Source: Thermoanaerobaculia bacterium (GTDB lineage: Bacteria > Acidobacteriota > Thermoanaerobaculia > Gp7-AA8). Taken from it: a stretch of 64,000 nt of DNA. The stretch spans positions 5,167,600-5,231,599 of the forward strand of contig OY970284.1 of the NCBI GenBank assembly GCA_963715895.1. The letters run 5' to 3'. Shown here piece by piece: positions 42,601 to 63,767 of this stretch. The translations under genes were made by a program, and so were the position numbers. The first letter of the stretch is position 1; each line of letters starts with the position of its first letter. A model generated the notes under the pieces. That model did not search any database. It saw only the letters and a program-made list of their open reading frames with translations, and was not told the DNA's origin.

Positions 42601-42754
42601 GCTCTGGCAGATCGGTTTCCCGATCCATTGGGGCTTCGCGGGCGATCCCGGCCATACCGGGCCGCTCGCCAACTTCCTGACCGCCTCGGTAGGCGACCCA
42701 AACACATGGACGCCCGAATACAAGGCGTTCCTCGTGAACCTCGACAAGGCGTGA
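39671..42754 (+). CDS. fdnG: Formate dehydrogenase major (alpha) subunit, Tat-exported, selenocysteine-containing (in-frame TGA at 40244..40246)
   Basis: A GTG start follows GGAGG. The Tat signal is VELSRRGFLKATTIGGAVALGFDLTKAHA. The 4Fe-4S motif CPYCAVSCG is present. Track ORFs 39419..40246 and 40259..42754 share a frame and are joined by TGA in the conserved context QARV-U-HGPTVASLAATFGRGAMTN. Confidence 0.9.
40247..40290 (+). promoter_or_regulatory. Candidate bacterial SECIS hairpin
   Basis: The stem GGUGGCC (40258-64) pairs with GGCCGCC (40270-76) around the loop AGUUU. It starts 11 nt after the UGA. An outer pairing CCACGG/CCGUGG (40254-59 with 40285-90) is also possible. Confidence 0.5.
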
Positions 42755-42764
42755 GGAGACGACG

Positions 42765-43643
42765 ATGGCCGGTCAAACGCTCGAGATCAAACGCTCCTCC
42801 GCCGCGATGTGGGGCACCCGCACCGGGATTCGCACCACCCCGACGGTGGCCAAGTACATCGATACGACCACCTGCATCGGATGCAAGGCCTGCGAGGCAG
42901 CGTGCCAGGAATGGAACGACCTCGGAACGGTGGAGACGGAGCAGACGGGGACCTATCAGACGCTGCCGACGCTCGATGCGAAGTTCTGGAACCTGATCCG
43001 CTTCAACGAGCGGGAGGTCGACGGCGGCCTGATGTGGATGATGCGCAAAGACCAGTGCATGCACTGCGCGGAGCCGGGCTGCCTGGAAGCGTGTCCGGCC
43101 CCCGGAGCGATCGTGCAGTACGGGAACGGAATCGTCGACGTCGATCCGTCGAAGTGCATCGGCTGCGGCTATTGCGCGACCGGCTGCCCGTTCGACGTGC
43201 CGAAGTTCCACGTCAAGAGCGGAAAGATGGCCAAGTGCACCCTGTGCGTCGACCGCGTCGAGGTGGGGCTGGAGCCGGCATGCGTGAAGGCATGCCCAAC
43301 AGGCTGCCTGAACTTCGGCACGAAAGACGACATGGTGGCTCTCGGGAAGGCGCGCGTGGGCCAGCTCAACAAGAGCGGCTTCAAGGATGCCATGCTCTAC
43401 GATCCGGAAGGTGTCGGCGGCACGAGCGTGGTCACGGTGCTCGGTCACGGACATCCGGAATGGTACGACCTGCCCGTCGATCCGAACGTCCCGGTGCTGG
43501 TGCGCCTGTGGAAGTCGGTCATCCGCCCGGTCGGCGTTCTAGCCGCACTGGTTACGGCGATCGGAACATTCGCTCACTACACGAAGTACGGGCCGATCGA
43601 GCCCCCGCCGCGGGATGGTGGACCGGACGATCACGCGAATTGA
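42765..43643 (+). CDS. fdnH: Formate dehydrogenase iron-sulfur (beta) subunit
   Basis: Four ferredoxin-type Cys clusters are present (CIGCKACEAAC; CMHCAEPGCLEAC; CIGCGYCATGC; CTLCVDRV...C). A C-terminal TM anchor is present. Confidence 0.9.
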   Translation: MAGQTLEIKRSSAAMWGTRTGIRTTPTVAKYIDTTTCIGCKACEAACQEWNDLGTVETEQTGTYQTLPTLDAKFWNLIRFNEREVDGGLMWMMRKDQCMHCAEPGCLEACPAPGAIVQYGNGIVDVDPSKCIGCGYCATGCPFDVPKFHVKSGKMAKCTLCVDRVEVGLEPACVKACPTGCLNFGTKDDMVALGKARVGQLNKSGFKDAMLYDPEGVGGTSVVTVLGHGHPEWYDLPVDPNVPVLVRLWKSVIRPVGVLAALVTAIGTFAHYTKYGPIEPPPRDGGPDDHAN

Positions 43644-43677
43644 TGGAATCCTGACGTTCTTACCTGCGGAGGGAAGC

Positions 43678-44373
43678 ATGACTACGATGGCGCACGGACA
43701 GACTGAGGCCGGAGTCGCAGCGGCTCGCGCTCGTGAGAATGTCGTCGCCGGCGGCGACATCGTGCGGCATCGCCGCTCGTCACGGCTCATTCACTGGTCG
43801 TTGGCCGCAACGTTCATCCTGGCGCTTTTGAGCGGTATGCCGATCTGGACTCCGCTCTTCGGCTGGATGGCCGGTCTGCTCGGCGGATTGGAAGTCTGCC
43901 GTTGGCTGCATCCCTACGTCGGATCGCTCTTCTTCATCCTCTCGGTCGTGCAGTTCTTTCACTGGTTGGGCGACATGCACCTCACGTCTGCCGATCGGAA
44001 ATGGTTTGGCGGGAAAACGATCAGGTACATGAAACATGAAGAGATCGGGACCGACCCCGGCAAGTACAACGGCGGCCAGAAGCTCTTCTTCTGGGCGGCC
44101 ACTCTCGGCGCGATCGGTCTGCTGCTATCGGGATTGATCATGTGGTTTCCGCTGTATTTCCCGCAGATGGTCAGAGAGTTGGCGATTCTTCTTCACGACA
44201 TCACCTTCATCTGCTTCCTCCTCGCCATCATCGGTCATATCTACCTCGGCACGGCCGCAGAGCCGGGGACGTTCCGGGCCATGACCCGCGGCACGGTCAC
44301 CCGTGCCTGGGCGCGCCTGCATCATCCCGGCTGGTTCGAGGAAGTGACGGGGGATGAGGCGCGAAAGCGCTGA
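43678..44373 (+). CDS. fdnI: Formate dehydrogenase cytochrome b556 (gamma) subunit
   Basis: It is a four-TM protein with conserved His (RLIHWSLA, WLHPY, HDITF, IGHIY). The ATG at 43678 follows an RBS. Confidence 0.8.
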   Translation: MTTMAHGQTEAGVAAARARENVVAGGDIVRHRRSSRLIHWSLAATFILALLSGMPIWTPLFGWMAGLLGGLEVCRWLHPYVGSLFFILSVVQFFHWLGDMHLTSADRKWFGGKTIRYMKHEEIGTDPGKYNGGQKLFFWAATLGAIGLLLSGLIMWFPLYFPQMVRELAILLHDITFICFLLAIIGHIYLGTAAEPGTFRAMTRGTVTRAWARLHHPGWFEEVTGDEARKR

Positions 44374-45196
44374 CCTTCTCCTGATGATCGGGACATCGCG
44401 GAGACTCTCACCGGCAGCAGAGTTGGAACGCCGCGCCGGGCGTGCCGCGTTGCTGGCCGGCCAGACATCCATCGCGAACGAACCGCTCCTCTTCGCGTCG
44501 TCACTCTGCCGCGCGCAGAGCGCGTCTGCCGCCGTGATCGATGAGGCGCATGCGGCACGGCCGCTGACCGGTCGCCTCGACGACGACGTCGCGCGCCTCC
44601 TGCCATTGTGCGAAACGATCATCCGGGCCGGGGCGGAGCACGGCCCCGAGCCGCTCGCCGCCGACGCGCATAGACGGCGATCGGAGGGAAGCGAGACGGC
44701 GGCAATACGTCTGCTGACCTACTGGAATGACGATACCAGCGCGCGGGAGGACTACCTCTCGCGCGCGGTTCTGCGACCTTACGCGGAGGTTCTTCGCGCG
44801 AATCAGGTGACGCCCGGCCGGCTTCACCGTCCCGGTCATTGTCCGTTCTGCGGCGGAGCACCTTGGATCGGCGTTCTGGTTCCCATGCAAGATTCCGAGG
44901 GAAGCTTGCGTCTTCTCGGTTGCGCGCTCTGCGGCAACGAATGGAACGTCAACCGCGTCCGCTGTCCCTCCTGTCAGGAGGAAAATCCGGCCAAACTGCC
45001 GGTCTACCAGAGCGATGCCCATCCGCTGGTGAGAATCGAATCGTGTGAGACCTGCCGTCGCTACGTGAAGTCGATCGATCTCACAAAGGACGCACGGCTC
45101 ATCCCCGAAATCGACGAGATGCTCTCCATTTCGATGGACCTCTGGGCAATGGACGAGGGTCTGACGCGCATCGAGCCGGGACTGGCGGGGATCTGA
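44354..45196 (+). CDS. fdhE: Formate dehydrogenase accessory protein FdhE
   Basis: Four CxxC pairs are present (CPFCGG, CALCGN, CPSCQ, CETCRRY) in FdhE spacing. Confidence 0.85.
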   Translation: MRRESADLLLMIGTSRRLSPAAELERRAGRAALLAGQTSIANEPLLFASSLCRAQSASAAVIDEAHAARPLTGRLDDDVARLLPLCETIIRAGAEHGPEPLAADAHRRRSEGSETAAIRLLTYWNDDTSAREDYLSRAVLRPYAEVLRANQVTPGRLHRPGHCPFCGGAPWIGVLVPMQDSEGSLRLLGCALCGNEWNVNRVRCPSCQEENPAKLPVYQSDAHPLVRIESCETCRRYVKSIDLTKDARLIPEIDEMLSISMDLWAMDEGLTRIEPGLAGI

Positions 45197-45198
45197 CT

Positions 45199-45633
45199 TT
45201 GAAAAATACCGATACGCTGCTGCGCGCGCAACGCGCGTTGCGCAGCCGCTTTGACGATTTCCGGCAGGCCTTTCAACGCGACGATCGCACGGCGCTGCAT
45301 GTCGCCCTGGTCGACTTTGAAGAGCAGTTCCGGCGATGGACGGAGACCGAAGAGAAGACCCTCATTCCAGCGCTGGCGCGGAACGGCATTCCCGGACGCG
45401 ATCCTCGGCGCGAGCTTCGTCTCGAATACGTGCAGATCCGGGAGCTGACGCGTTATCTCGTCCGCCAGCTCGACGAAGGAATCCGCGCCAACGATCTGAC
45501 CGGCTTCGTCGAGAACCTCGACCGCCGCCTGCGCGCGCACGAATCGGAAATGGAGCGGATCTATTACCCGGCCGCGCGAACCCTGCTGACCGCGGAGGAG
45601 TGGAGCATCCTGGAATCGGCGCAGCCGGAGTAG
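45199..45633 (+). CDS. Hypothetical protein, weakly hemerythrin-like
   Basis: The ORF is 144 aa with a TTG start 2 nt after fdhE. Spaced H/E motifs are present (HVALVDFEEQF...EEKTLIPAL...HESEMERIYYPA). The call is tentative. Confidence 0.35.
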   Translation: MKNTDTLLRAQRALRSRFDDFRQAFQRDDRTALHVALVDFEEQFRRWTETEEKTLIPALARNGIPGRDPRRELRLEYVQIRELTRYLVRQLDEGIRANDLTGFVENLDRRLRAHESEMERIYYPAARTLLTAEEWSILESAQPE

Positions 45634-45642
45634 CGGTCTTCG

Positions 45643-45772
45643 GGAGCGCTGGCGTCTCGCCGGCTGGCCCAGCGGCGTCTCGCCGCTGAGAGGGGTTACC
45701 AGCGAAGGTATGGTGACTCGCCAGCCCGGAGGCGAGACGCCTCCGGGCCAGCCGGCGAGACGCCAGCGCTCC
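45643..45772. repeat. Composite palindrome of the GGCGTCTCGCC family
   Basis: The outer 27-nt arms are GGAGCGCTGGCGTCTCGCCGGCTGGCC (45643-69) and its exact reverse complement (45746-72). The inner hairpins are CAGCGGC-GTCTC-GCCGCTG and CCGGAGGC-GAGAC-GCCTCCGG. Confidence 0.9.
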
Positions 45773-45796
45773 GTTCCGGCAGCGCTCCGCGCTGTC

Positions 45797-46105
45797 TTAT
45801 CCGAGCTGGTGAATCTCGAACGCTGGCTCGTCCGGGACTTCGCGCATGGCGTCGTAGGTGGCTTCCAGTTGCTCGCGCGGCCAGCCGAGGAACATGCCAT
45901 CTCCACGATAGACGGATCGGCCGTCGGGCAATTCGGCCAGCATGATCGATCCGCTTCCCTGATCGGCGCTGATCTCCATCCGCCAGCCGGCATGCGTGAC
46001 GCCACTCTCGCGCATCCGGATGGGAGCACGCTCGAGCGAACCAAGAGTGGCATTGGTCAGCAGGGAGCCGATTTTCCCCGGAGCGTCGTCGTCCATCGTC
46101 GACAT
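45797..46105 (-). CDS. Hypothetical protein
   Basis: The ORF is 102 aa and no family was recognised. Confidence 0.4.
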   Translation of the reverse strand: MSTMDDDAPGKIGSLLTNATLGSLERAPIRMRESGVTHAGWRMEISADQGSGSIMLAELPDGRSVYRGDGMFLGWPREQLEATYDAMREVPDEPAFEIHQLG

Positions 46106-46113
46106 TGTAGTTC

Positions 46114-46926
46114 TCAGGCAACCTGACCGGCGTAGATGTTGAACCTGCCGTCGCGGACGAAGCCGAGGAGGGTCAGGTTGAACTCGCGGGCCAGATCGAC
46201 GGCCAGCGAGGATGGCGCGCCGACGGAGGCCAGGAGCGGAATGCCGGCTACGATCGCTTTCTGCACTAGCTCGAAGCTGGCGCGGCTGCTGACCATGAGG
46301 ATCCTCCCGGAGAGCGGCGTCGCCCCTTCGCGAAAGAGGGAACCGATCACTTTGTCGACGGCGTTGTGACGGCCGATGTCTTCGCGGGCCCGGAGCAGGT
46401 TCCCGTCATAATCGAAGATCGCGGCGCCGTGAATCCCTCCCGTGGCGCGAAAAGCCGTTTGGTGCTCCTGCAGGACGGACGGAAGACGATGGATGATATC
46501 TCCGCCGATCGATCGTCCCGCGGGCAACATCGTGGCCGCGACGCGGAGCGCATCGATGGAGGTCTTGCCGCAGACGCCGCAACTGGACGTGGTGTAGAAG
46601 TGGCGGTCGAGCTTACTGACGTCGAGCTTCGCGCCTCGATGCAGCGACAGGCGGATGATGTTCGGCGACCCCCAGTGGCGGATGGAATCGATCTCTTCAT
46701 GGGAGCGGATCAGCCCTTCGGTGAAGAGAAAGCCGCTGGCCAGGTCGGCGTCGTCGCCCGGCGTGCGCATCGTCACGGCGATGTTCTTCTCCCGCGCTTC
46801 TCCGCCGGCCTCCCACGCCACGCGGATCTCCAGCGGCTCCTCGACGGCAAGGACGTCGGTATCCTCGGTCGACGCCTGCTGCGTCACCCGGGTCATGGTA
46901 ACGGAGGCGATTCGTTCTTCGGGCAT
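46114..46926 (-). CDS. fdhD: Formate dehydrogenase accessory sulfurtransferase FdhD
   Basis: SSCGVCGK and GRHNAVDK motifs are present. The ATG at 46926 gives 270 aa. The 751-aa track ORF is a read-through artefact. Confidence 0.9.
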   Translation of the reverse strand: MPEERIASVTMTRVTQQASTEDTDVLAVEEPLEIRVAWEAGGEAREKNIAVTMRTPGDDADLASGFLFTEGLIRSHEEIDSIRHWGSPNIIRLSLHRGAKLDVSKLDRHFYTTSSCGVCGKTSIDALRVAATMLPAGRSIGGDIIHRLPSVLQEHQTAFRATGGIHGAAIFDYDGNLLRAREDIGRHNAVDKVIGSLFREGATPLSGRILMVSSRASFELVQKAIVAGIPLLASVGAPSSLAVDLAREFNLTLLGFVRDGRFNIYAGQVA

Positions 46927-46964
46927 CGCTGCGATTGTGAATGAAGTGAGACCTGTATCGTTCT

Positions 46965-47813
46965 CTATTTGACCGCGCCCACAGTGAAGCCCTCGATGAA
47001 CCGGTCGAGAAAGAGGTTGTAGAGGAAGCCGATCGGCAGGCTGGTGATCAGGCACGCCGCCATCAGCGATCCCCAGTAATAGACGTCGCCGCGCACCAGA
47101 AACGTCGGCACACCGACACCGACGGTCTGATGGGCCGCCGAGGAGATGAAGGTCAGCGCGTAGACAAACTCCTGCGTCACCAGGGTAAAGGCGAAGATCA
47201 CCACCGTAAGGATCCCCGACGTCGACATCGGGATCATCAGCTTCACGAACGCGCCCCATTGCGTGAGGCCATCCACCAGTGCCGCATCCTCGAGATCGCG
47301 CGGGATCGATTTGAAGAACCCCATCAGCAGCCAGGTCGAGAACGGGATGGTAAAGGTGGGATAGACGACGATGATCGACCAGAGCGAGTCCTGCAGGCCG
47401 AGGAATGAGACCACCTTTGATAACGGGATGAAGAGCAGCGTCGGCGGCACCAGGTAGGTGAGAAAGACACCGATGCCGAGCTGCGTTCCCCACTGGCCGG
47501 TGAGGCGTGCCAGTGCATACGCGGCCGGCACCGCCAGCAGCAGCGTGATGATCACCACGATCACGCCGGCGAACATCGTGTTCAGGACCCATCGCGGAAA
47601 AAGCGTCTCGTGGAAGAGCAGCCGCAGGTGATCGAGCGTCGGCGGCTCGGTGAAGAGGAACGGATTGTTCTTGAGGTTGTTGAGGTCCGTGTTGCGTTTG
47701 AAGGTGGTGATCAGCATCCAGTAAAACGGGAAGGCCAGCACCACCGCGAAGAAGATCCGCACCAGCCACATCACGATCTTCGGAAGAATCCAGGTCAGCC
47801 GCCGGCGTGCCAT
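46965..47813 (-). CDS. Carbohydrate ABC transporter permease (MalG-like)
   Basis: It is a 6-TM protein with an EAA-like loop (IPRDLEDAALVDGLTQWGAFVKLMIP). Confidence 0.85.
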   Translation of the reverse strand: MARRRLTWILPKIVMWLVRIFFAVVLAFPFYWMLITTFKRNTDLNNLKNNPFLFTEPPTLDHLRLLFHETLFPRWVLNTMFAGVIVVIITLLLAVPAAYALARLTGQWGTQLGIGVFLTYLVPPTLLFIPLSKVVSFLGLQDSLWSIIVVYPTFTIPFSTWLLMGFFKSIPRDLEDAALVDGLTQWGAFVKLMIPMSTSGILTVVIFAFTLVTQEFVYALTFISSAAHQTVGVGVPTFLVRGDVYYWGSLMAACLITSLPIGFLYNLFLDRFIEGFTVGAVK

Positions 47814-48695
47814 CTACGTCACCTCCGCGCGGTGCGCCGAGCGCAGGACGACATAGGCGGCGATGACCAGCAGCGGCACCAGGAAGATCGAGATGGCCGC
47901 CCCCTCCGCCAGGTCGGAGCCGAGGATCCCGGCGAAGAACGCCTCCGTCGGAATCACCTGCGTCGTGTCGTACGGTCCTCCTCGGGTGAGGATATAGATC
48001 ACGGTCATGTCGGTGAAGGTGAAGATCGCCCCGAACAGCACCGCGACGTTGATGATCGGCAGCATCATCGGAATCGTGATCTGAAAGGTCGTACGGAAAA
48101 AGCCCGCACCATCCACCGCCGCGGCCTCGGGGATGTCTTTGGGGATGGCTGTCAGCCCCGCCAGAATGATCACCGTCGCGAACGGCAGCATGTGCCAGGT
48201 GTGCACGAGGATGACCGACATCATGGCCAGCTTCGGTTCGCCTAGCCACATCGGCGTGTCGTATTGATTCACGAGGTGGAACCGCACCAGCACCCAACTG
48301 ATCACGCTGTAGAGCGAGTCGAGGATCCACTTCCATCCGAGGGATCCGATCGACACCGGCGCCACCCACGGCAGCAGGATGAGAAAGCGAAAGAATCGGC
48401 GGCCCGGGAAGGCTTCTCGCAACGAAAGGGCCAGAATGTTCGCGCCGATGAGCACCAGCGCCTGGGAGCTGATGGTAAAGACGAACGAGTTCTGAAGCGC
48501 GCGCCGGAAGGCCGGGTTGTGCAGGATGCTGACGAAGTTCTGCAGGCCGACGAAGTGGTAGGAGACGCTGCCCACTTTGGCGTCGCTCACGCTGTAGAGA
48601 AAGGCCATGACGAAGGGCACGCCGACGAGCGCGACGATGTAAACGATGGCCGGCATGAACATCGCCGGCCCGAGCCAGCGCTGACGCCGGATCAT
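47814..48695 (-). CDS. Carbohydrate ABC transporter permease (MalF-like)
   Basis: It is a 6-TM protein with an EAA-like loop (IPKDIPEAAAVDGAGFFRTTFQITIP). Confidence 0.85.
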   Translation of the reverse strand: MIRRQRWLGPAMFMPAIVYIVALVGVPFVMAFLYSVSDAKVGSVSYHFVGLQNFVSILHNPAFRRALQNSFVFTISSQALVLIGANILALSLREAFPGRRFFRFLILLPWVAPVSIGSLGWKWILDSLYSVISWVLVRFHLVNQYDTPMWLGEPKLAMMSVILVHTWHMLPFATVIILAGLTAIPKDIPEAAAVDGAGFFRTTFQITIPMMLPIINVAVLFGAIFTFTDMTVIYILTRGGPYDTTQVIPTEAFFAGILGSDLAEGAAISIFLVPLLVIAAYVVLRSAHRAEVT

Positions 48696-49738
48696 GCGGG
48701 GATGCTCCTCGGCGCAGTCCTCTTCTCGCTGACGTGGTCGAAGAACTTCACGTCGCCGAGGGCAACGGCGAAGTTCTGCAGCGAACCGTCGGGCAGCGAT
48801 ACGGCGTGCGTGGAGGGAATGCGCGACACCGCCTTCCGCCCGTCGAATGCCCCTCCGGCGATCGTTCCGTACAGGACGCGCTCGGCGCCGAGATACTCGC
48901 CGTGTGAGATCTGGAATCCAAAGGAGATGTGCTCTCCCGACCGCACCGCCACACCCGGCGGCAGAAAGTGCTCGGGACGGAATCCGATGATGACGTCGGG
49001 CCCGGGCAGGATGTTCATCGGCGGCGAACCGAGGAACGTGGCCACGAAGGTATCGGCCGGCTCGTCGTAGACGTCGGCCGGCGTACCGATCTGCCGCACG
49101 GCGCCCTGCGACATCACCACGACGCGGTCGCCCATGGCCATGGCCTCGACCTGATCGTGGGTGACGTAGATGGCGGTCGTGCCGATGCGTTTCTGAAAGT
49201 GCTCGAGCTCCTCACGTGCCGAGGCGCGGAGCTTGGCATCGAGGTTCGAGAGCGGCTCATCGAGAAGAAACAGCGACGGCTCGCGCACGATGGCGCGGGC
49301 CAATGCCACGCGCTGGCGCTCTCCGCCGGAGAGCTCGCGCGGCTTTCGGTCGAAGAGATGCTGGATGCCGAGCAGCGATGCCGCCCACTCGGCCTGCTTC
49401 TGCCGCCGCTCCTTCGGCACGCCCTGCGCTTTCAGCGGAAAGACGATGTTTTTGAACACGGATAGATGCGGATAGAGCGCGTAGCTCTGGAAGACCATGG
49501 CGATTCCGCGCTCGCGCGGCGTGAGGTCATTGACCAGCTTGCCGCCGATGAGGATCTCGCCGGAGGTCGGCTCCTCGAGGCCGGCGATCATTCGGAGAAG
49601 CGTAGTCTTGCCCGAGCCGGAAGGGCCGAGGAGGACGAGGAACTCGCCCTCCCGGCTCTGAAGATCGACATTGACGACGGCGCCGACGTTTCCGCGCTTG
49701 AAGACTTTGTTGAGTTTGCGTGTCTCGACGACCGCCAT
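48692..49738 (-). CDS. Sugar ABC transporter ATP-binding protein (MalK/UgpC-like)
   Basis: GPSGSGKTT, LSGGERQRVALARA and FLLDEPLSNLD are present, with a C-terminal regulatory domain. Confidence 0.9.
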   Translation of the reverse strand: MAVVETRKLNKVFKRGNVGAVVNVDLQSREGEFLVLLGPSGSGKTTLLRMIAGLEEPTSGEILIGGKLVNDLTPRERGIAMVFQSYALYPHLSVFKNIVFPLKAQGVPKERRQKQAEWAASLLGIQHLFDRKPRELSGGERQRVALARAIVREPSLFLLDEPLSNLDAKLRASAREELEHFQKRIGTTAIYVTHDQVEAMAMGDRVVVMSQGAVRQIGTPADVYDEPADTFVATFLGSPPMNILPGPDVIIGFRPEHFLPPGVAVRSGEHISFGFQISHGEYLGAERVLYGTIAGGAFDGRKAVSRIPSTHAVSLPDGSLQNFAVALGDVKFFDHVSEKRTAPRSIPA

Positions 49739-56870: not shown

Positions 56871-57287
56871 TCAGTCCCAGCGCCCGCGGCCACGTGACAA
56901 CGCAAAGCGGCCGCTGCCGAGGAAGGCGATCGCCAGGGCGCTGAAGAAGTAGAGCAATTGGAGCTCTCCATGCAGGGCGCCGGTCTGACGGTCGACGTCA
57001 AACATCTTCATGCCGAGAACGAGGTACGACGCCATCGACATCTCGAATACGACGACGAGAGCCGCGACTCGCGTGAAGATCCCGGCGATGAGCAGGATCG
57101 GCGCCACGACTTCCGCGACGTACACGCCGTACGCGAGCCATGCGGGCAGGTGATGCGCCTGCAGCGGTCCGGCCATCCAGGCCACGCCGTGCCGCAGTTT
57201 CGAGATTCCGTGAAAGGCGAGCAGGACCGCCACGGTGAGTCGGAGAATGAGCTTTCCTTGGTCGTCCATGACGTTCTCCTTAGCCAC
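56871..57287 (-). CDS. DoxX family membrane protein
   Basis: It is a 138-aa four-TM protein. LLAFHGISKL...GVYVAEVVAPILLIAGIFTRVAAL is typical of DoxX. Confidence 0.7.
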   Translation of the reverse strand: MAKENVMDDQGKLILRLTVAVLLAFHGISKLRHGVAWMAGPLQAHHLPAWLAYGVYVAEVVAPILLIAGIFTRVAALVVVFEMSMASYLVLGMKMFDVDRQTGALHGELQLLYFFSALAIAFLGSGRFALSRGRGRWD

Positions 57288-57494
57288 TAACGTTGAATCG
57301 CATGGCTCACTTTAGCGAAGAGAGACCGATCGAGCTTCTAGAGCCGAGGTAGAGGACAGTCTGCCAGTTGATTTTGTCGCTGTACAGGGTCGGCCTGGAT
57401 GCCGAGCTAAGATATCGTCGAAAGGAAATATCCGCGTATGTCCGTAGAGAGAAGGGGCGATCCCGGTTCGATCCCGTTCAGTTCCACCAACCCG

Positions 57495-58253
57495 ATGGAC
57501 CGGCAGCTCTTTCTCGTCCTTGGACTCAACCGCAGCGGCACCTCGGCTCTGACCAAGGCACTGGCGGCGTGTGGCGCCGCGATCGGGTTTCAGCATCCAG
57601 CGCTCGCCACCGGCCTCTGGAAAAATGACCAATGGCATCCCGCCGGCGGCTACGAAAGCCACGAGGTCCCTCCGGTGCTGTGGCTGGTGCGGGAGATCGT
57701 CGATCGCGCCGGCGGCACCCAGGCCAACCCGCTCATCGGCGATGAAATCAGTCTAAGCGTCACGGACACCTTCGCCGTGGCCGGGCTCCTCAACTCCATC
57801 CCTTCGTTCCCGTTCGCGATCAAAGATCCGCTGCTGACGTTCCAATACCGGCAGTGGAAGCAGATTGCGCGCGAGGCGAAGATCGACACGCGCGCTGTCG
57901 TTTCGCTGCGCGACCCGCTGCAGAGCGCGCACGCGCTGCTCAAGCGCCGCTTCTGCCGGACCATTCGCGGCGGTCTGGAACAGTGGCTTCGGTACTACAG
58001 CGAGGTCAAATTCCTCCTCGACGCCGGCGAGCAGCCGATGATCGTCTTCTATGACGGCGACATGGACTCGTACCTGCCGCAGATAGCGGCGCTCTGCGGC
58101 GCGCTCGGCCTGACCTTCGACCGGGAGAAGGTCCGGGGAGGCTTTACTCCCGCCCCGCGCCAGGAGCACGACGCGGGCGAGATGGACCAGCATCCTCTCG
58201 GCGACGCCATCCGCCGGCTGTTCGACGATCTGCGGTCACGCAAACTCGAATAG
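57495..58253 (+). CDS. Sulfotransferase-family protein candidate
   Basis: MDRQLFLVLGLNRSGTSALTKAL resembles the PAPS 5'-phosphosulfate-binding loop (xxRSGTT/S) at the extreme N-terminus. The rest was not assignable by eye. Confidence 0.5.
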   Translation: MDRQLFLVLGLNRSGTSALTKALAACGAAIGFQHPALATGLWKNDQWHPAGGYESHEVPPVLWLVREIVDRAGGTQANPLIGDEISLSVTDTFAVAGLLNSIPSFPFAIKDPLLTFQYRQWKQIAREAKIDTRAVVSLRDPLQSAHALLKRRFCRTIRGGLEQWLRYYSEVKFLLDAGEQPMIVFYDGDMDSYLPQIAALCGALGLTFDREKVRGGFTPAPRQEHDAGEMDQHPLGDAIRRLFDDLRSRKLE

Positions 58254-59408
58254 CGGCCGCAGCAGCATCTCCTGGCCCAAGGTGCGTTTGAGCACGCGCG
58301 GCACGGCGTCGCGGTCACGCTCGCCGCGAAGGATGCCGGCGAGCATGGCGCGCGACTCGGGCGGCAGACGCAATGGGATCGTTCCCTCGGCAGCGAGGCG
58401 CGCGAGCGACTCGGCGACCCATTCCGCCGGATCGGCTTCCGGCAGCAGTTCCGCGAGCGCATCGCGGATCGGCGGCCAGGAGCGGTATGTCAGCAACAGC
58501 GCCAGCAGGATGCGATCCTCCGGTCTGGCCACGCGCGACCACCGGATCGAATAGAAAAGATCGACCTCGTGGCCGGCGTCGGCCATCCCGGCAAACCACG
58601 CCCCCTGATGCTTTGCGCCGAGCGCAACCGTCTCCTCGATCGCCCCCGCCGCGCGCAGGTAGTGCCAGTTCTCGAGCAGGTGCCATACCGCGTCCCACGG
58701 CTGCTCGCGTTTGATCAGCAGGCGGATGTAGTCGAGCCCCTTCGGCGTGGCGCGCAGGCTCTCCGCCATCTTGCGCGTGTAACGGAACCGCTCGGGCACG
58801 GCCACGAAACGCCAGTCCTCGCGCAACACCTGCGTGGCGATGGCCGGCCGAAAGTACTGGAACTGCCGCAGCGCCGGCGTGCGCGGCGGCGTGCGGATGA
58901 CCAGAACGACCGTCGGTTCGTCGAGATGCCACACCTGATGGATGAAGCTGGAGCCCGGATCGATACGCCGCACGTCGCCTTCGCGGATCATTTCGATCGC
59001 GGCCACGCGAAGCTCGCCGGTGCGGACGGCCGGATCGACCCGACCGGCGCCTGCAAAGTCGAAGGTGCCATGCAGGGTCCTTCCCGAAAGGTTGAGAAAG
59101 GCCCCGGCGAAGTCGTGATCGTGCACCACCACCTCGGGCGTGGTGTAGACGTAGACACTGACGAAAAAGCGCGCATTCGACCAGACCGTGAACGCCGACG
59201 GTCCGAACGGTCCGAAGGGATTGCACGCCGCGGGAAAGCGCTGCCGGGACAGCGTCCAGTCGGCGAGCGCGGCGAGATCAAAGGAGCGGTCGGGGCGGGC
59301 CTCCGCGAGCAGGCGCGCCGCGATCCGCGGAAGGTCACGAGGTTTGTAGCCTGCCGCCTTCCACTCCGCATCGATCCGCGCGGCCAGCCGCCGCAGCGCC
59401 GGGACCAT
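58236..59408 (-). CDS. Hypothetical 390-aa protein (possible cupin-like core), divergent from the lasso operon
   Basis: Coding-like composition is present. The segment VVVHDHDFAGAFLNLSGRTLHGTF...IHQVWHL suggests a His-rich metal site. No family was recognised. Confidence 0.5.
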   Translation of the reverse strand: MVPALRRLAARIDAEWKAAGYKPRDLPRIAARLLAEARPDRSFDLAALADWTLSRQRFPAACNPFGPFGPSAFTVWSNARFFVSVYVYTTPEVVVHDHDFAGAFLNLSGRTLHGTFDFAGAGRVDPAVRTGELRVAAIEMIREGDVRRIDPGSSFIHQVWHLDEPTVVLVIRTPPRTPALRQFQYFRPAIATQVLREDWRFVAVPERFRYTRKMAESLRATPKGLDYIRLLIKREQPWDAVWHLLENWHYLRAAGAIEETVALGAKHQGAWFAGMADAGHEVDLFYSIRWSRVARPEDRILLALLLTYRSWPPIRDALAELLPEADPAEWVAESLARLAAEGTIPLRLPPESRAMLAGILRGERDRDAVPRVLKRTLGQEMLLRPLFEFA

Positions 59409-59577
59409 CGTCAGGAGTCTCGCTTACATAATTCCATTCGTCAAGCGCCGCGGCAACCCGCCGTCACCCCCTTGACTGCATGGCCAGCCGATGAGCCGGG
59501 CCATGCCGCACGCGTTTCAAGAAATAAATAGCGAAACCCATTGACACGCACGTGTGTTTTTGTGCACCCTTACGTCT

Positions 59578-59844
59578 ATGCGCGCCGACCCGCGAGTCCG
59601 GCTGGTCATGAAGGACGAAGGCGCGGTATTGCTCCACCTTGGGAACGGCCACTACCAGAGTCTCAACAAGACCGGGGCGCTGATCTGGAAAGAGATCACC
59701 TCCGGTGCCACGCTCGATGAGACGGTGACGCGGCTCTGCAGTCGATTTCCAGCCATTCCCCGGGAGCGCGTCGAAGGGGACGTGCGCGAATTCGTAGCGC
59801 AACTCAAGGAACGCGACCTGGTTGCGCTGGAGACTGAACGATGA
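59578..59844 (+). CDS. Lasso peptide biosynthesis PqqD-family chaperone (B1 / RRE)
   Basis: LVMKDEGAVLLHLGNGHYQSLNKTGALIWKEITSGATLDETVTRLCSRFPAIPRERVEGDVREFVAQLKERDLV is a typical PqqD/RRE fold sequence. It overlaps B2 as ATGA. Confidence 0.85.
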   Translation: MRADPRVRLVMKDEGAVLLHLGNGHYQSLNKTGALIWKEITSGATLDETVTRLCSRFPAIPRERVEGDVREFVAQLKERDLVALETER

Positions 59845-60203
59845 TCGCCGCCTGGCTTCGGCTGGCCGTTGTCGACTTGCTCGTCTCCTTTGGCGGCTTT
59901 CCTCGTCTGCACCGCTTCATGCGCGGCATCGCGGTTCGCCAAACGGAGAAGGCCGCCACGGCCGAGCAGGTCTGCCGCACCCTCGACCGCGCCGCGGTCC
60001 ACTACCCCCGCGAGCTGCAGTGCCTGAAACGCTCTGCGGCGATGACCTGGCTCCTCCGCGCCCGCGGCTACCCCGCGGCGATGATGTTCGGCGCCACCGT
60101 CACTCCGTTCATGGCCCACGCCTGGGTCGAACTCGACGGCCGCGTTATCAGTGAAGACGAGCGGACGATTCGCGGTACCTACGACGTCCTGGACCAATGG
60201 TGA
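59841..60203 (+). CDS. Lasso peptide biosynthesis B2 protein (transglutaminase-like leader peptidase)
   Basis: The catalytic Cys context is RELQCLKRSAAMTWLL and the His context is FMAHAWVELDG. The size of 120 aa fits split-B systems. Confidence 0.85.
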   Translation: MIAAWLRLAVVDLLVSFGGFPRLHRFMRGIAVRQTEKAATAEQVCRTLDRAAVHYPRELQCLKRSAAMTWLLRARGYPAAMMFGATVTPFMAHAWVELDGRVISEDERTIRGTYDVLDQW

Positions 60204-61954
60204 TGGAGCTCTTCGGAACGCTCCATCGCTTTCCTTCCGACTCGGTGACGATGTCTCCGTCGGTCGCGGACGGCGAGCTGGCGATCTCGTTCGACGGCCG
60301 TCTCGACGATCCGAACGACCTCCGTGCCGAGCTCTCGCTTCCGTGGCATGCCGGCAGCGAAGCGATCATCGCCGCCGCGCATCGCCGCTGGAACGACGAC
60401 TTCCTCGCCCACCTCACCGGCGACTTCGCTTTTGCTCTCTGGGACTCACGCACAGCGCGACTTCTCCTGGCGCGCGACTGCTTCGGCGTACGCCCGCTCT
60501 TCTTTCATCGGAGACCCGAGGCCATCACCTGGTCGTCGCGTCTGCAACTGCTGCTCGACTACACCGGCTGCGACCGCACCCCTGACGACGACTACATCGT
60601 CGCCGTCCTGGCCAACGGCGGGCGGCTCGACGTCAGCCCCTACGCCGCCATCGCGGCGGTGCCGCCGGCGAATTTCGTCACGTTCACCCGGGACGGGCAA
60701 TCGACACGCACCTACTGGCGGCTCGATCCCGCAAGCGAGGTCCGCCTCGCTTCCGATGCCGAATACGAGGAGCGGTTTTTCACCCTCTTCCGCAGATCGG
60801 TGCGCAACCGGCTGCAGGCCAAGGGTCCCGTTTTCGCGGAACTGAGTGGTGGCGTCGACTCCTCGTCGATCGCCGCGGCCGCCGACGACGTCATGCGCGG
60901 CGAAGGCCGGCCCAACGACGCGCTGCAGACGGTCTCGCACATCTACGAGGAGACCGCACAATCGGACGACGGCCCCTTCATCGCCATCGCCGAACGAGCG
61001 CTCGGCCGGCCGGCACATCACTTCCTTGAACGCGATGCGCGGATCTTCTCTTCGATCGCCGAAGAGTACCCGTACGAGGCGCCGGCGCCGTACTGGGCCG
61101 GCGCGGAGCTCCGCGCGCGCGTCGCCGCGCGCGTGGCAGAACGCGGGGGCTCGGTAATCCTCAGCGGCCTCGGCGGCGATCACATCTGCTGGAGCGATAC
61201 CGACACGCCTCCGGCCGTCAGCGACCACCTGGCCCGCCTGCGCATCGGAGCGGCGGCGCGGGAGGCCAGGGAGTGGTCCGCCGCGATCGCCGTCCCGCAA
61301 ATGAGAATCCTGGCACGCGCCGCACGGCTGGCCATCGGCGCCCGCTTCGGCCTGCGCCACCACGCTCCGAACCTTCCTCCCTGGCTCGACCCGCGCCTCG
61401 CCAAACGCCGCCCGGGCCTCGACCTCAGCGGGTTTCGTCTCCCCAGCCGGCGGGAGTTCGTGCTGGTCATGCGCGCACTGCTGGATGCGATCCGGCTCCG
61501 GCACTCCGTCGATCCATCCATCGAGGTGCGCTATCCATTCGCCGACCGCGACCTCGTCGAATTCACCTTCGCCCTGCCCATCGAACAGCATCTTCGCCCG
61601 CACGAGATGCGCTCGCTCCAGCGGCGCGCCATGGCCCGCCTGCTGCCGCCGGAGATCGCCCAGCGGAAGTCGAAAGGGGGTCCGGCCAAGGCCATTTACC
61701 TGCGGCTGCGGCAGGTCTGGCCGGCGCTCCGTCCGCTCGTCGAGCGCGAGCGCCTGCGCGTCGTCGAGCGCGGCTACGCCGACCGCGCCATCCTGCTGAA
61801 CGCGCTGCAGCGGGCGGGACACGGACAGAACGTCAACGCGCCCTTCCTGATGCGCGTTCTGGCCGTCGAATTCTGGCTCCGCAAACTGGAACGGGCCGCC
61901 ACGGCCGGCGAATCGCCGCGGCGGAATCCCGCAATCACGACCGAAAGGAGGTGA
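60197..61954 (+). CDS. Lasso peptide isopeptide-bond-forming cyclase (asparagine synthetase-like, C protein)
   Basis: The ATP pyrophosphatase motif ELSGGVDSSSIAAAA is present. The Asn-synthetase B-like architecture spans 585 aa. Confidence 0.9.
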   Translation: MVMELFGTLHRFPSDSVTMSPSVADGELAISFDGRLDDPNDLRAELSLPWHAGSEAIIAAAHRRWNDDFLAHLTGDFAFALWDSRTARLLLARDCFGVRPLFFHRRPEAITWSSRLQLLLDYTGCDRTPDDDYIVAVLANGGRLDVSPYAAIAAVPPANFVTFTRDGQSTRTYWRLDPASEVRLASDAEYEERFFTLFRRSVRNRLQAKGPVFAELSGGVDSSSIAAAADDVMRGEGRPNDALQTVSHIYEETAQSDDGPFIAIAERALGRPAHHFLERDARIFSSIAEEYPYEAPAPYWAGAELRARVAARVAERGGSVILSGLGGDHICWSDTDTPPAVSDHLARLRIGAAAREAREWSAAIAVPQMRILARAARLAIGARFGLRHHAPNLPPWLDPRLAKRRPGLDLSGFRLPSRREFVLVMRALLDAIRLRHSVDPSIEVRYPFADRDLVEFTFALPIEQHLRPHEMRSLQRRAMARLLPPEIAQRKSKGGPAKAIYLRLRQVWPALRPLVERERLRVVERGYADRAILLNALQRAGHGQNVNAPFLMRVLAVEFWLRKLERAATAGESPRRNPAITTERR

Positions 61955-61961
61955 AATCAAA

Positions 61962-62108
61962 ATGACGGAAAGAAAGGAAGAAGAAGGCTACGAAGCGCCT
62001 GAGATCTTCGAGCTCGGCCGCGCCGAGGAACTGACGCTCGGCAAACCGATGGGCGGATGGCCCGACGACTTCGAGCAGTTCATCAAGCCGCAGCCGCCGT
62101 ACTGCTGA
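61962..62108 (+). CDS. Lasso peptide precursor (A peptide), 48 aa; not in the ORF track
   Basis: The translation is MTERKEEEGYEAPEIFELGRAEELTL|GKPMGGWPDDFEQFIKPQPPYC. AAAGGAGG lies 9 nt upstream. The leader has Y-17, P-14, I-12, G-8 and T-2. The core starts with Gly and has Asp at position 9. Confidence 0.8.
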   Translation: MTERKEEEGYEAPEIFELGRAEELTLGKPMGGWPDDFEQFIKPQPPYC

Positions 62109-62115
62109 TGGCGCC

Positions 62116-62144
62116 CGAGGTGCCCTGTCCCGCAGGGCACCTCG
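62116..62144 (+). terminator. 12-bp hairpin immediately after the precursor gene
   Basis: The hairpin is CGAGGTGCCCTG-TCCCG-CAGGGCACCTCG. No U-tract follows. Confidence 0.55.
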
Positions 62145-62238: not shown

Positions 62239-62973
62239 ATGAGAATCGTCTGGATCGTGACCGCACTCCTCGTAATTTCCGCCTCGGCGTTTGCGCAACC
62301 CTCCGGCCAGTACCTCCGGATGCAGGGCTTTCCGCAACACGGTTATATCGAGATCCCCGATGACGTCCTGCTCGACACCCCCTCGATGACGGTCGAGGCC
62401 TGGGTCTCGGTTCGTGACGCGCACGGCGGTACGGGCTGCTCCTCGATCGCGGGGAAGGGATTCCAGACCGGTTGGTGGCTCGGACTGTGCGGCACGACGA
62501 TGCGCAGCTACTTCAACGGCTCGTCAAGCCTCAGGGACGGCGGCGTCATCCCGGATGTGCCCACCACCGTCTGGATCCACATCGCGGCCGTGACGGATGA
62601 GACGACACACACACGCAAACACTACATCAACGGAAATCTCGTGTCCCAGGGAGCAGAGGCTCCCCGGTCCGTGTCGACGCTCCCCATGCGCATCGGGAGC
62701 GACCCGAACTGGGACTTCATGCCCGAGGGAGGCATCGACGACTTGAGGATCTGGAAGGTTGCCCGGACGCAGGAGCAGATTCGCCAGACCATGTTTACGG
62801 GCTTCATTCCGGAAGCGAACGACGTCACCGGCGTGTTCCAGGGACTCGAAGCCTGGTACCGATTCGAAGGCAACGCCTTTGACTCGTGGCGTACGCACCA
62901 CGGAACGATCGTCGGAACCGGAATCAGCTTCGCCCAAGCCCCCCCCTTCCGGCGGCACTCGGCGGGACACTGA
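62239..62973 (+). CDS. Secreted LamG / concanavalin-A-like lectin domain protein
   Basis: The signal peptide is MRIVWIVTALLVISASAFAQP. Typical LamG strings are present (MTVEAWV..., WIHIAAV..., GGIDDLRIWKVARTQEQIRQ). Confidence 0.6.
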   Translation: MRIVWIVTALLVISASAFAQPSGQYLRMQGFPQHGYIEIPDDVLLDTPSMTVEAWVSVRDAHGGTGCSSIAGKGFQTGWWLGLCGTTMRSYFNGSSSLRDGGVIPDVPTTVWIHIAAVTDETTHTRKHYINGNLVSQGAEAPRSVSTLPMRIGSDPNWDFMPEGGIDDLRIWKVARTQEQIRQTMFTGFIPEANDVTGVFQGLEAWYRFEGNAFDSWRTHHGTIVGTGISFAQAPPFRRHSAGH

Positions 62974-63767
62974 TGGTCATGACACGATTCGTTGCCGCGC
63001 TCGCGATCAGCCTCGGCATGGCCACATCCTGCCTTGCCGGGGACACGCTCGCCGACGCACTCAGGATCATCCAGAGCAAGGAGATCGTCGATCTCACGCA
63101 CACCTTCAGCGCGGCCACGCCGGTGTGGAGCGGCTTCGGACCAGCCACGATGAGCGCCGCGTGCGATCCGAAAACCCACAACCCCTACACGATCGAGCAC
63201 GACGGCTTCCGCACGACGTTCTATTCGATGGTGGGGCAGTACGGCACGCACGTCGATCCGCCGGCGCATTTCCGCGCCGACGGCATGACCATGGACGAGA
63301 TTCCGCTGAAGCAGATGATCCTGCCGCTGGTCGTTTTCGACATCACGCCGTTGCTGCCGAAGGATCCGAATCACGCCCTCACCATCGACGACATCAAGGC
63401 GTGGGAAAAGGAGCACGGCACGGTCCCGGCCGGCGCATTCGCCGCGCTGCGCACGGACATGAGCAGAGACTGGACGGCTAATCCCGAGCGCTTCAAGCGC
63501 TCGCCGTTCCCGGCGTGGTCGCTTGCCGCCATCAAGTTTCTATTCGAAGAGCGGAAAGTAACGGCGATCGGACACGAGTCACTCGACACCGACACGACGG
63601 AGTCGATGGATTCGGAGACGTGGATCCTGAAGCAGAATCACTATCAGATCGAGGCCATGGCCAATCTCGATAAGGTGCCGCCTGCCGGCGCCGTCATCGT
63701 CGTCACCTGGCCAAAGGTGGAGCATGGCGTCGGCTTTCCGGCGCGGGCGTTTGCGATCCTGCCGTGA
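62973..63767 (+). CDS. Cyclase family protein (kynurenine formamidase-like), secreted
   Basis: The motifs VDLTHTF and YGTHVDPPAHF (HxGTHxDxPxH type) are present, with a signal-like N-terminus. The ATG overlaps the upstream stop (TGATG). Confidence 0.8.
   Translation: MVMTRFVAALAISLGMATSCLAGDTLADALRIIQSKEIVDLTHTFSAATPVWSGFGPATMSAACDPKTHNPYTIEHDGFRTTFYSMVGQYGTHVDPPAHFRADGMTMDEIPLKQMILPLVVFDITPLLPKDPNHALTIDDIKAWEKEHGTVPAGAFAALRTDMSRDWTANPERFKRSPFPAWSLAAIKFLFEERKVTAIGHESLDTDTTESMDSETWILKQNHYQIEAMANLDKVPPAGAVIVVTWPKVEHGVGFPARAFAILP

Follow-up and report, generated by a model that had tools for sequence, protein, structure and literature searches.

Does the genome of an acidobacterium hold a working pathway for a lasso peptide, a peptide of ribosomal origin tied in a knot, and if so, how far along the chromosome does that pathway extend? 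This question is raised by a 64-kb stretch of DNA from a Thermoanaerobaculia bacterium (contig OY970284.1, positions 5,167,600 to 5,231,599), here called the window, whose numbering is used for all positions that are not assigned to another locus. Near its end, the open reading frame (ORF) map and the sequence place four genes on one strand at 59578-62108 in the order B1-B2-C-A, and these very probably make up a functional-looking minimal operon for a lasso peptide. Homologous loci fetched for comparison are labeled L007-L044 and relatives of the precursor P0162-P0169. The features of the operon, each with the evidence on which it was called, are as follows.

59578 to 59844, forward strand: B1, a PqqD-like recognition element for ribosomally made peptides that are modified post-translationally (RiPPs); PF05402, 67.2 bits; alternative GTG start at 59554
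59841 to 60203, forward strand: B2, a transglutaminase-like Cys protease; NF033537, 75.5 bits, and PF13471, 79 bits
60197 to 61954, forward strand: C, the ATP-dependent lasso cyclase (macrolactam synthetase); PF00733, 134.5 bits, and PF13537, 70.8 bits; alternative ATG at 60203
61945 to 61951, forward strand: Shine-Dalgarno sequence AAGGAGG of the precursor gene, read from the sequence, 10 nt 5' of the ATG
61962 to 62108, forward strand: precursor A, 48 amino acids; NF033521 lasso_leader_L3, 24.5 bits
62116 to 62144, forward strand: GC-rich hairpin with a stem of 12-13 bp, from the inverted repeat and the folding z-score
59409 to 59577, no strand assigned: divergent intergenic region between B1 and the upstream gene X390, from gene arrangement alone

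The identity of the three enzymes is carried by profile matches and by the residues required for catalysis. The match of B1 to PqqD is above the cutoff of 23.4 bits, and the protein is 74% identical to its counterpart in L010, which starts at the equivalent Met; between these two the ratio of nonsynonymous to synonymous substitution (dN/dS) is 0.20, a value that denotes purifying selection. B2 exceeds the cutoff (33 bits) of the lasso-specific model lasso_biosyn_B2 in addition to its match to Transglut_core3, and its putative catalytic triad consists of Cys61 (60021-60023) and His93 (60117-60119), both invariant among 12 homologues, and Asp106 (60156-60158), conserved in at least 90% of them. 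C combines Asn_synthase and GATase_7 domains and contains the PP-loop SGGVDS at residues 217-222 (60845-60862). Among NCBIfam models, the lasso cyclase model NF033535 is its best match with 235 bits, 85 bits above the AsnB-type model TIGR01536 (150 bits). Since matches to the glutamine amidotransferase (GATase) profiles begin only at model position 62-66, C lacks the N-terminal part that carries the nucleophilic Cys, and such a loss of the nucleophile is what the sequence of a lasso cyclase is expected to show. An exact-sequence look-up of C returned no record, and species-representative genomes contained no cyclase more than 35% identical to it (the best being 35%).

The 48-residue product of the last gene passes the leader model lasso_leader_L3 (cutoff 19 bits) and divides into a leader of 26 residues (61962-62039, MTERKEEEGYEAPEIFELGRAEELTL) and a core of 22 amino acids (62040-62105, GKPMGGWPDDFEQFIKPQPPYC). 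The leader fits the pattern YxxPxLxxxGxxxxxTx with Y-17, P-14, I-12, G-8 and T-2. A word-indexed search with the precursor retrieved no match besides itself; phmmer against 1.84 billion proteins returned eight matches, the best of which (P0162) is 65% identical with an E-value of 2e-11. Four short relatives obtained with phmmer (P0162, P0164, P0165 and P0166), all metagenomic, were aligned with the precursors of the window, L012 and L013. Across these seven sequences Y-17, P-14, E-13, L-9, G-8, L-3 and T-2 are invariant, while in the core G1 is found in six and W7-P8-D/E9 likewise in six. Conservation of the leader motif together with that of G1 and W7-P8-D9 therefore places the predicted cleavage after Leu-1 and predicts a nine-residue macrolactam between Gly1 and Asp9, implying a lasso peptide with a ring of nine residues and a tail of 13, DFEQFIKPQPPYC. 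The calculated monoisotopic mass of this lasso form is 2518.145 Da. As the core has a single Cys, an internal disulfide is impossible, and hence the predicted product is a disulfide-free lasso peptide of 22 residues with a free C-terminal Tyr-Cys. The window core is the sole member of the precursor family with any Tyr or Cys: these are its last two residues, Y21 and C22, with Tyr21 being the only hydroxyl-bearing residue of the core, and the core of L012 contains neither. The conserved positions define a small new sequence family, G-x5-W-P-D, and the free C-terminal Cys is unusual and could be a conjugation handle.

Three further proteins of greater length, P0163 (268 aa), P0168 (107 aa) and P0169 (199 aa), consist of two to five tandem repeats that resemble a lasso leader joined to a short core (...YEAPEATAIGRVEELTG...), each repeat then being followed by a conserved SDERLKE...ALxRLR spacer. 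From their sequence these proteins may be multi-core precursors.

The arrangement of the genes points to a single transcriptional unit whose translation is coupled. B2 starts on the stop codon of B1 (ATGA), and the overlap between B2 and C is 7 nt long but shrinks to 1 nt (TGATG) with the alternative C start at 60203, as is the case in L012. The precursor gene carries its own strong Shine-Dalgarno sequence within the end of C. The divergent intergenic region is presumed to be the promoter region of both B1-B2-C-A and X390. The metagenomic locus L012 has the identical order B1-B2-C-A, with a cyclase 56%, a B2 63% and a B1 51% identical to those of the window, and its precursor reads MTDKEQTTGYETPEVFELGDAQALTQ|FNQFADWPEVVGVRFIFSP (leader|core). 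A precursor gene after C is also found in L013, and the order B2-C-precursor recurs in most of the distant loci (L013, L015-L029, L035). Because this order recurs across related loci, a terminal precursor gene and the lack of an exporter are the norm of the clade, L012 being likewise devoid of an exporter. The precursor-last layout, which had been put forward as a peculiarity of this cluster, is thus normal in the soil-metagenome clade. Many of the distant precursors (L015-L029), which follow the cyclase, are of the MKYExPEL type with ...IQ or VQ before the core.

Some related lasso loci have two tandem cyclase paralogues (B2-C-C), namely L014 (4377-8015), L020 (890-4611), L021 (6012-9733), L022 (6080-9173) and L023 (3437-7115); behind the cyclases come one or two MKYxxPxL-type precursors whose position -2 is Ile or Val.

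Beginning 8 nt past the precursor stop codon, two arms of 12 nt (62116-62127 and 62133-62144) are 100% complementary. The computed folding energy of the hairpin region is -38.4 kcal/mol (z = -4.4), a stability that no sequence in a set of 200 shuffles attained. It has no U-tract, and the canonical pattern of an intrinsic terminator is not matched. L012 has a 13-bp hairpin of different sequence directly after its precursor (z = -4.65), and its presence at the equivalent place despite the different sequence suggests a conserved structural end of the operon. The hairpin at 62116-62144 is thus probably either the end of the operon or a stabilizer of the 3' end of its mRNA.

Taken feature by feature, this is the cluster described by the first-pass annotation, which had proposed a complete split-B lasso cluster composed of a PqqD/RRE-like B1 (RRE, RiPP recognition element), a transglutaminase-like B2 with Cys and His contexts, an Asn-synthetase-like cyclase with SGGxDS, translational coupling of these three genes, an unannotated 48-residue ORF with its own strong Shine-Dalgarno sequence and a 12-bp hairpin behind it. 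All of these are present where they had been placed, and all four products are matched by hidden Markov models (HMMs). The assignment by HMM, which had been named in advance as the point at which the proposal could fail, succeeded for B1, B2 and the precursor and, in C, for its Asn-synthetase fold.

Gene identities, catalytic motifs, the architecture of leader and core, the positions of cleavage and ring closure, the operon layout and the terminal hairpin are read from the sequence and its comparisons, and with these in place the chemistry, threading and export can be modeled on the established lasso pathway. The three enzyme genes, with their overlapping stop and start codons, and the precursor gene with its own strong ribosome-binding site would be expressed from one mRNA closed by the hairpin. 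PqqD-like B1 would bind the 26-residue leader through Y-17, P-14, I-12, G-8 and T-2 and present the precursor to the B2 protease, whose Cys61-His93-Asp106 triad would cut after Leu-1. C would then adenylate the side chain of Asp9 and join it to the amine of Gly1, forming the nine-residue macrolactam through which the tail would be threaded.

Among characterized systems, the closest parallels in gene content are the split-B lasso clusters of Actinobacteria and Firmicutes, such as those for lariatin, fusilassin/fuscanodin and paeninodin, in which separate B1 and B2 proteins act with an Asn-synthetase-like C and the leader is recognized through YxxPxL and T-2. The window shares with them the discrete PqqD-like B1, the transglutaminase-like B2 and the Asn-synthetase-like C, but in those clusters the precursor gene usually comes first and an ABC (ATP-binding cassette) exporter, D, is present, whereas here the order is B1-B2-C-A without exporter, and sequence identity to any named protein is low, as the 35% of the best species-representative cyclase illustrates. 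Proteobacterial peptides of the astexin/caulosegnin/capistruin type have a macrolactam from Gly1 to Asp8/9, in some cases with Pro-Asp closing the ring, and their precursors are covered by the same NCBIfam leader model, lasso_leader_L3, as that of the window. Their clusters, however, have a fused B and an isopeptidase or a D exporter, and the window core is unrelated to theirs save for G1 and P8-D9. Since no close relative has been named or characterized, the product would be a new lasso peptide of an established class, and the earlier expectation of a probably new compound holds. The neighboring genes have their closest named homologues in metagenome-assembled genomes (MAGs) of Thermoanaerobaculia and Vicinamibacterales, both belonging to Acidobacteriota, and this agrees with the attribution to an Acidobacteriota-like host, also made earlier. 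The chromosome has a length of about 6.6 Mb, as given by the contig. Precursors of phosphorylated lasso peptides in Acidobacteriaceae, Bradymonadales and Sphingomonadales are of a rare type with Ile or Val at position -2 (PMC10368454). The precursors of the distant loci L015-L029 match this type, whereas that of the window differs from it by the canonical Thr at -2 and by having neither a kinase gene nor a C-terminal Ser.

The second part of the question concerns the extent of the cluster. The first-pass annotation had it begin at 59578, and this delimitation stands for B1 to A but leaves out two candidate tailoring genes immediately upstream.

57495 to 58253, forward strand: S271, a candidate accessory gene whose product has a predicted sulfotransferase fold (AlphaFold2 (AF2) model and Foldseek); start of the automated ORF at 57438
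58236 to 59408, reverse strand: X390, a candidate accessory gene for a thiol-dioxygenase-like cupin of 390 aa (AF2 model and Foldseek)

The probable start of S271 is 57495 (Met20), as its homologues align from Met20. X390 is convergent with S271, with an 18-bp overlap, and divergent from B1. Neither protein reaches the threshold of any Pfam or NCBIfam family, and both have many homologues, 50-87% identical and all called 'hypothetical', of which the named ones come from Thermoanaerobaculia or Vicinamibacterales MAGs. Sequence searches with both proteins against the Protein Data Bank (PDB), as a single sequence and as a profile, gave nothing useful, and the folds came from structure prediction and Foldseek.

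The AF2 model of S271 has a mean confidence (pLDDT) of 88, and its top Foldseek matches in the PDB are the tyrosylprotein sulfotransferases TPST2 and TPST1 (E 3e-5, probability 1.0), at a modest template modeling (TM) score of about 0.5. All 13 matches with an E-value of 1e-3 or lower are sulfotransferases, and the Sulfotransfer_3 profile gives sub-threshold scores of 13-17.6 bits (cutoff 27) in each of the six S271 members tested. Invariant residues of the family lie in GLNRSGTS, GGYE, IKDP, RxP and RDPxxSxH. On its model S271 therefore looks like a tyrosylprotein sulfotransferase. No genes for the synthesis of the sulfate donor 3'-phosphoadenosine 5'-phosphosulfate (PAPS) occur near S271, and a 269-aa protein in L008 that was considered as an S271 homologue was rejected.

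The model of X390 (pLDDT 86) comprises a cupin at residues ~60-200 and an all-helical C-terminal domain at 206-387. Foldseek matches it to thiol, cysteine, 3-mercaptopropionate and cysteamine dioxygenases (E 1e-8, probability 1.0), and H96, H98 and H157 are invariant among its homologues, so that on this model X390 looks like a three-His cupin akin to thiol dioxygenases. It shares with cysteine dioxygenase (CDO), 3-mercaptopropionate dioxygenase and cysteamine dioxygenase (ADO) the predicted cupin fold and the three invariant His at the positions of the iron ligands, but differs from them by its extra helical domain of ~180 residues, the replacement of the Ser-His-Tyr triad and its genomic association with RiPP clusters. 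As no Pfam CDO_I or ADO match was found and the triad is replaced, the protein is named thiol-dioxygenase-like and not counted as a member of the family. X390 was also considered as a part of the core lasso machinery and rejected as such, because L012 is without it and homologues occur without RiPP genes.

Two observations were made directly upstream of this pair. The 25 nt at 57465-57489 (GGTTCGATCCCGTTCAGTTCCACCA), directly before the probable S271 start, resemble a tRNA 3' end with T-loop, acceptor stem and CCA and may be the remnant of an old integration site; ARAGORN and Rfam detected no tRNA or tmRNA there, and the window has no second copy. On the reverse strand, 56871-57287 encodes a DoxX-family membrane protein, whose match of 29 bits (cutoff 80) to HvfX, 'Cu-binding RiPP maturation', is probably generic DoxX similarity.

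The genomic contexts of the pair connect it with RiPP biosynthesis of another class. Eight loci (L037-L044) were fetched around S271 homologues of 57-61% identity, and in all seven with readable flanks (L037-L043) the S271 homologue has class I lanthipeptide genes for neighbors (LanB, LanC, a leader-domain precursor and often an exporter of the C39-ABC type), which occur in three or more different arrangements. On the corresponding flank L044 has a truncated unannotated ORF that may be the end of LanB, which would be consistent with a lanthipeptide context. Six of the eight loci contain X390 as well as S271. Because neither protein has a Pfam family, mining based on the co-occurrence of domains would miss the association of S271 and X390 with LanB and LanC. 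The lanthipeptide precursors in these Thermoanaerobaculia-type metagenome contigs are 48-52 aa long and end in ...CP (for example L038 1967-10239, L040 2738-11020 and L043 4130-10804). Long-form S271 homologues carry an extra N-terminal domain of ~85 residues, and a domain 42-47% identical to it forms the N-terminus either of the PrmA-like methyltransferase encoded next to them or of a neighboring 230-aa protein. Copies of this domain are located as follows.

L038, 6793 to 7053 and 8001 to 8270: two copies of the ~85-residue domain
L040, 9312 to 9578 and 10001 to 10270: two copies of the ~85-residue domain
L041, 8796 to 9062 and 10001 to 10267: two copies of the ~85-residue domain

Domains that recruit substrates to RiPP tailoring enzymes are typically shared in this manner, and by analogy the ~85-residue domain looks like one. 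Its identification as a PqqD-like RRE was rejected, since hhalign against the B1 alignment was not significant (probability 1.5%) and Pfam PqqD was not matched. The short form of S271 was likewise rejected as a lasso-specific form, because short forms are carried by L043, beside LanB/LanC, and by L044.

Sulfonated RiPPs so far comprise RaxX, some methanobactins and the class II lanthipeptides that SslST produces, an enzyme for which TPST1/2 are likewise the nearest solved structures; the search for co-occurrence of sulfotransferases with lanthipeptide synthetases in that study was positive only for LanM and negative for LanB (PMC11143521). A review (PMC8498205) gives no product for those lasso clusters in which 'putative sulfotransferase' genes had been recognized. 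Like RaxST and SslST, S271 has a predicted sulfotransferase fold closest to TPST1/2, is encoded beside RiPP machinery and has Tyr as a plausible acceptor; unlike them, it belongs to no Pfam family and occurs alongside class I (LanB-type) lanthipeptide genes as well as a lasso cluster. In the literature library that was searched, no paper connects RiPPs with thiol dioxygenases.

Does the pair then act upon the lasso peptide? It adjoins lasso B1 in the window and in the metagenome contigs L010 and L011, where the proteins are 71-80% identical, and in this lasso-adjacent lineage the two genes have dN/dS ratios of 0.18 and 0.26, which denote purifying selection. The pair may plausibly tailor the exposed tail by O-sulfation of Tyr21 and/or oxidation of Cys22 to the sulfinate. 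Such a role is favored by the association of the family with RiPP clusters, the adjacency to B1, the selection on both genes and the uniqueness of Tyr and Cys in the tail of this core, and the fact that L012, without the pair, has a core without Tyr and Cys was counted on the same side. Several findings weigh against it. Homologues of X390 in L007-L009 have no RiPP genes nearby, the pair is missing from L012, its association with lasso genes comprises one lineage, and in X390 the Ser-His-Tyr triad of CDO is replaced by Val168, Val170 and Arg172. Moreover, most of the lanthipeptide precursors beside S271 homologues have no Tyr, so that, if function is conserved, the acceptor is not necessarily Tyr. 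At the level of residues, GLNRSGTS, GGYE and RDPxxSxH of S271 align with the 5'-phosphosulfate-binding motif (5'-PSB), the catalytic Glu and the 3'-phosphate-binding motif (3'-PB) of TPST2 in a comparison that is not significant alone (hhalign E 0.027), and IKDP and RxP, too, were matched to PAPS-binding and catalytic motifs of TPST. The alignment that pairs H96, H98 and H157 of X390 with H86, H88 and H140, the iron ligands of CDO, is likewise not significant alone (E 0.24). That at least one of S271 and X390 modifies the lasso peptide is accordingly offered as a tentative proposal, and the fuller scenario, in which a so far undescribed RiPP-associated enzyme pair moved from class I lanthipeptide clusters to a lasso cluster and tailors its peptide, seems somewhat unlikely.

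The alternative that survives best accepts the lasso operon as real and takes the pair as unrelated to it, either a stranded module of lanthipeptide tailoring or sulfur metabolism or a chance neighbor, in which case the product would be an unmodified lasso peptide. This is fairly probable, given that the other contexts of the pair are lanthipeptide clusters, that X390 homologues also stand alone in unrelated neighborhoods, that L012 does without the pair and that, beside lasso genes, the pair is confined to one lineage, X390 being encoded on the reverse strand and S271 outside the operon. It has more difficulty in accounting for why the two genes have stayed intact and show purifying selection in this lineage though the window has no lanthipeptide genes, neither in the 57 kb upstream nor in the 2 kb downstream, and for why the core of this cluster alone offers a Tyr and a Cys in the exposed tail.

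A signature of recent arrival was sought in base composition. The segment 57495-62145 has a GC content of 0.671, compared with a mean of 0.632 and a maximum of 0.661 for other windows of equal size in the 64 kb. Since GC at third codon positions (GC3) is the same as in flanking genes, the excess is attributable to the encoded amino acids rather than to a recent transfer, and the interpretation of 57.5-62.1 kb as a recently acquired island was rejected, with GC3 equal to that of flanking and host genes and no clear foreign signature.

A further alternative is that the B1-B2-C-A operon itself is a decaying or silent relic, whose genes look intact but yield no peptide, or whose 48-residue ORF is not the true substrate. 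Several observations weigh in this direction. A sigma-70 consensus scan around the operon, including 59409-59577, detected no promoter, and a scan for canonical terminators was negative as well. No ABC exporter (D), isopeptidase or immunity gene adjoins the operon, as had been stated earlier for the first two; the nearest ABC ATPase gene (48692-49738) is accompanied by a sugar-type binding protein, and a gene of the major facilitator superfamily (MFS) lies 5 kb upstream. Clustering at 90% identity leaves the precursor as a singleton. Against the reading as a lasso operon in general, B1 is below the cutoffs of both lasso-specific PqqD models, NF033530 lasso_PqqD (59.7 bits, cutoff 70) and another (40.4 bits, cutoff 80), and C is under the narrow cutoff of 525 bits of the lasso cyclase model. 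Decay is nevertheless improbable, because all catalytic motifs are kept, translational coupling and the strong Shine-Dalgarno sequence of the precursor gene are preserved, the low dN/dS of B1 speaks for selection, the homologues of the precursor conserve exactly the residues for recognition and ring formation, and the layout is conserved in L012 and L013. The last alternative denies that this is a lasso system: C would be a common amidotransferase, and the PqqD-like and transglutaminase-like genes would belong to a different RiPP class or have a different function. It could cite the sub-cutoff score of C and its match to AsnB-type models but is hardly credible when the lasso cyclase model is the best for C by 85 bits, C is without the region of the glutaminase nucleophile, the lasso-specific model for B2 is passed and the precursor passes the lasso leader model with T-2, G1 and D9.

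Beyond the hairpin, 62239-62973 encodes a secreted Laminin_G_3 (LamG) protein and 62886-63767 a PF04199 'putative cyclase' that is arylformamidase-like. The two automated ORFs overlap by ~90 bp, and the second gene therefore probably starts near 62973. Both are probably outside the cluster, because L012 carries different genes downstream of the hairpin position. Elsewhere, the window presents an ordinary chromosomal context, with an IS110-family transposase at 1019-2383 and, ~12-20 kb upstream of the cluster, a formate dehydrogenase operon with accessory genes (FdhE-like, FdhD) at 40259-48369.

Lasso clusters have been predicted in very large numbers, and the B1-B2-C-A operon adds one more predicted lasso peptide, from the poorly sampled lineage of Thermoanaerobaculia-like Acidobacteriota. 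If the pair did tailor this peptide at Tyr21-Cys22, the result would be the first lasso peptide to be sulfated and/or cysteine-sulfinylated, and X390 would represent the first peptidyl-cysteine dioxygenase in RiPP biosynthesis. If S271 and X390 act on peptides, O-sulfation and Cys sulfinate would constitute two polar, charge-introducing RiPP modifications, and this would explain why co-occurrence mining based on Pfam overlooked such modifications. A pair of enzymes that belongs to no family and tracks RiPP clusters in soil Acidobacteriota may thus be of larger potential value than the lasso cluster itself.

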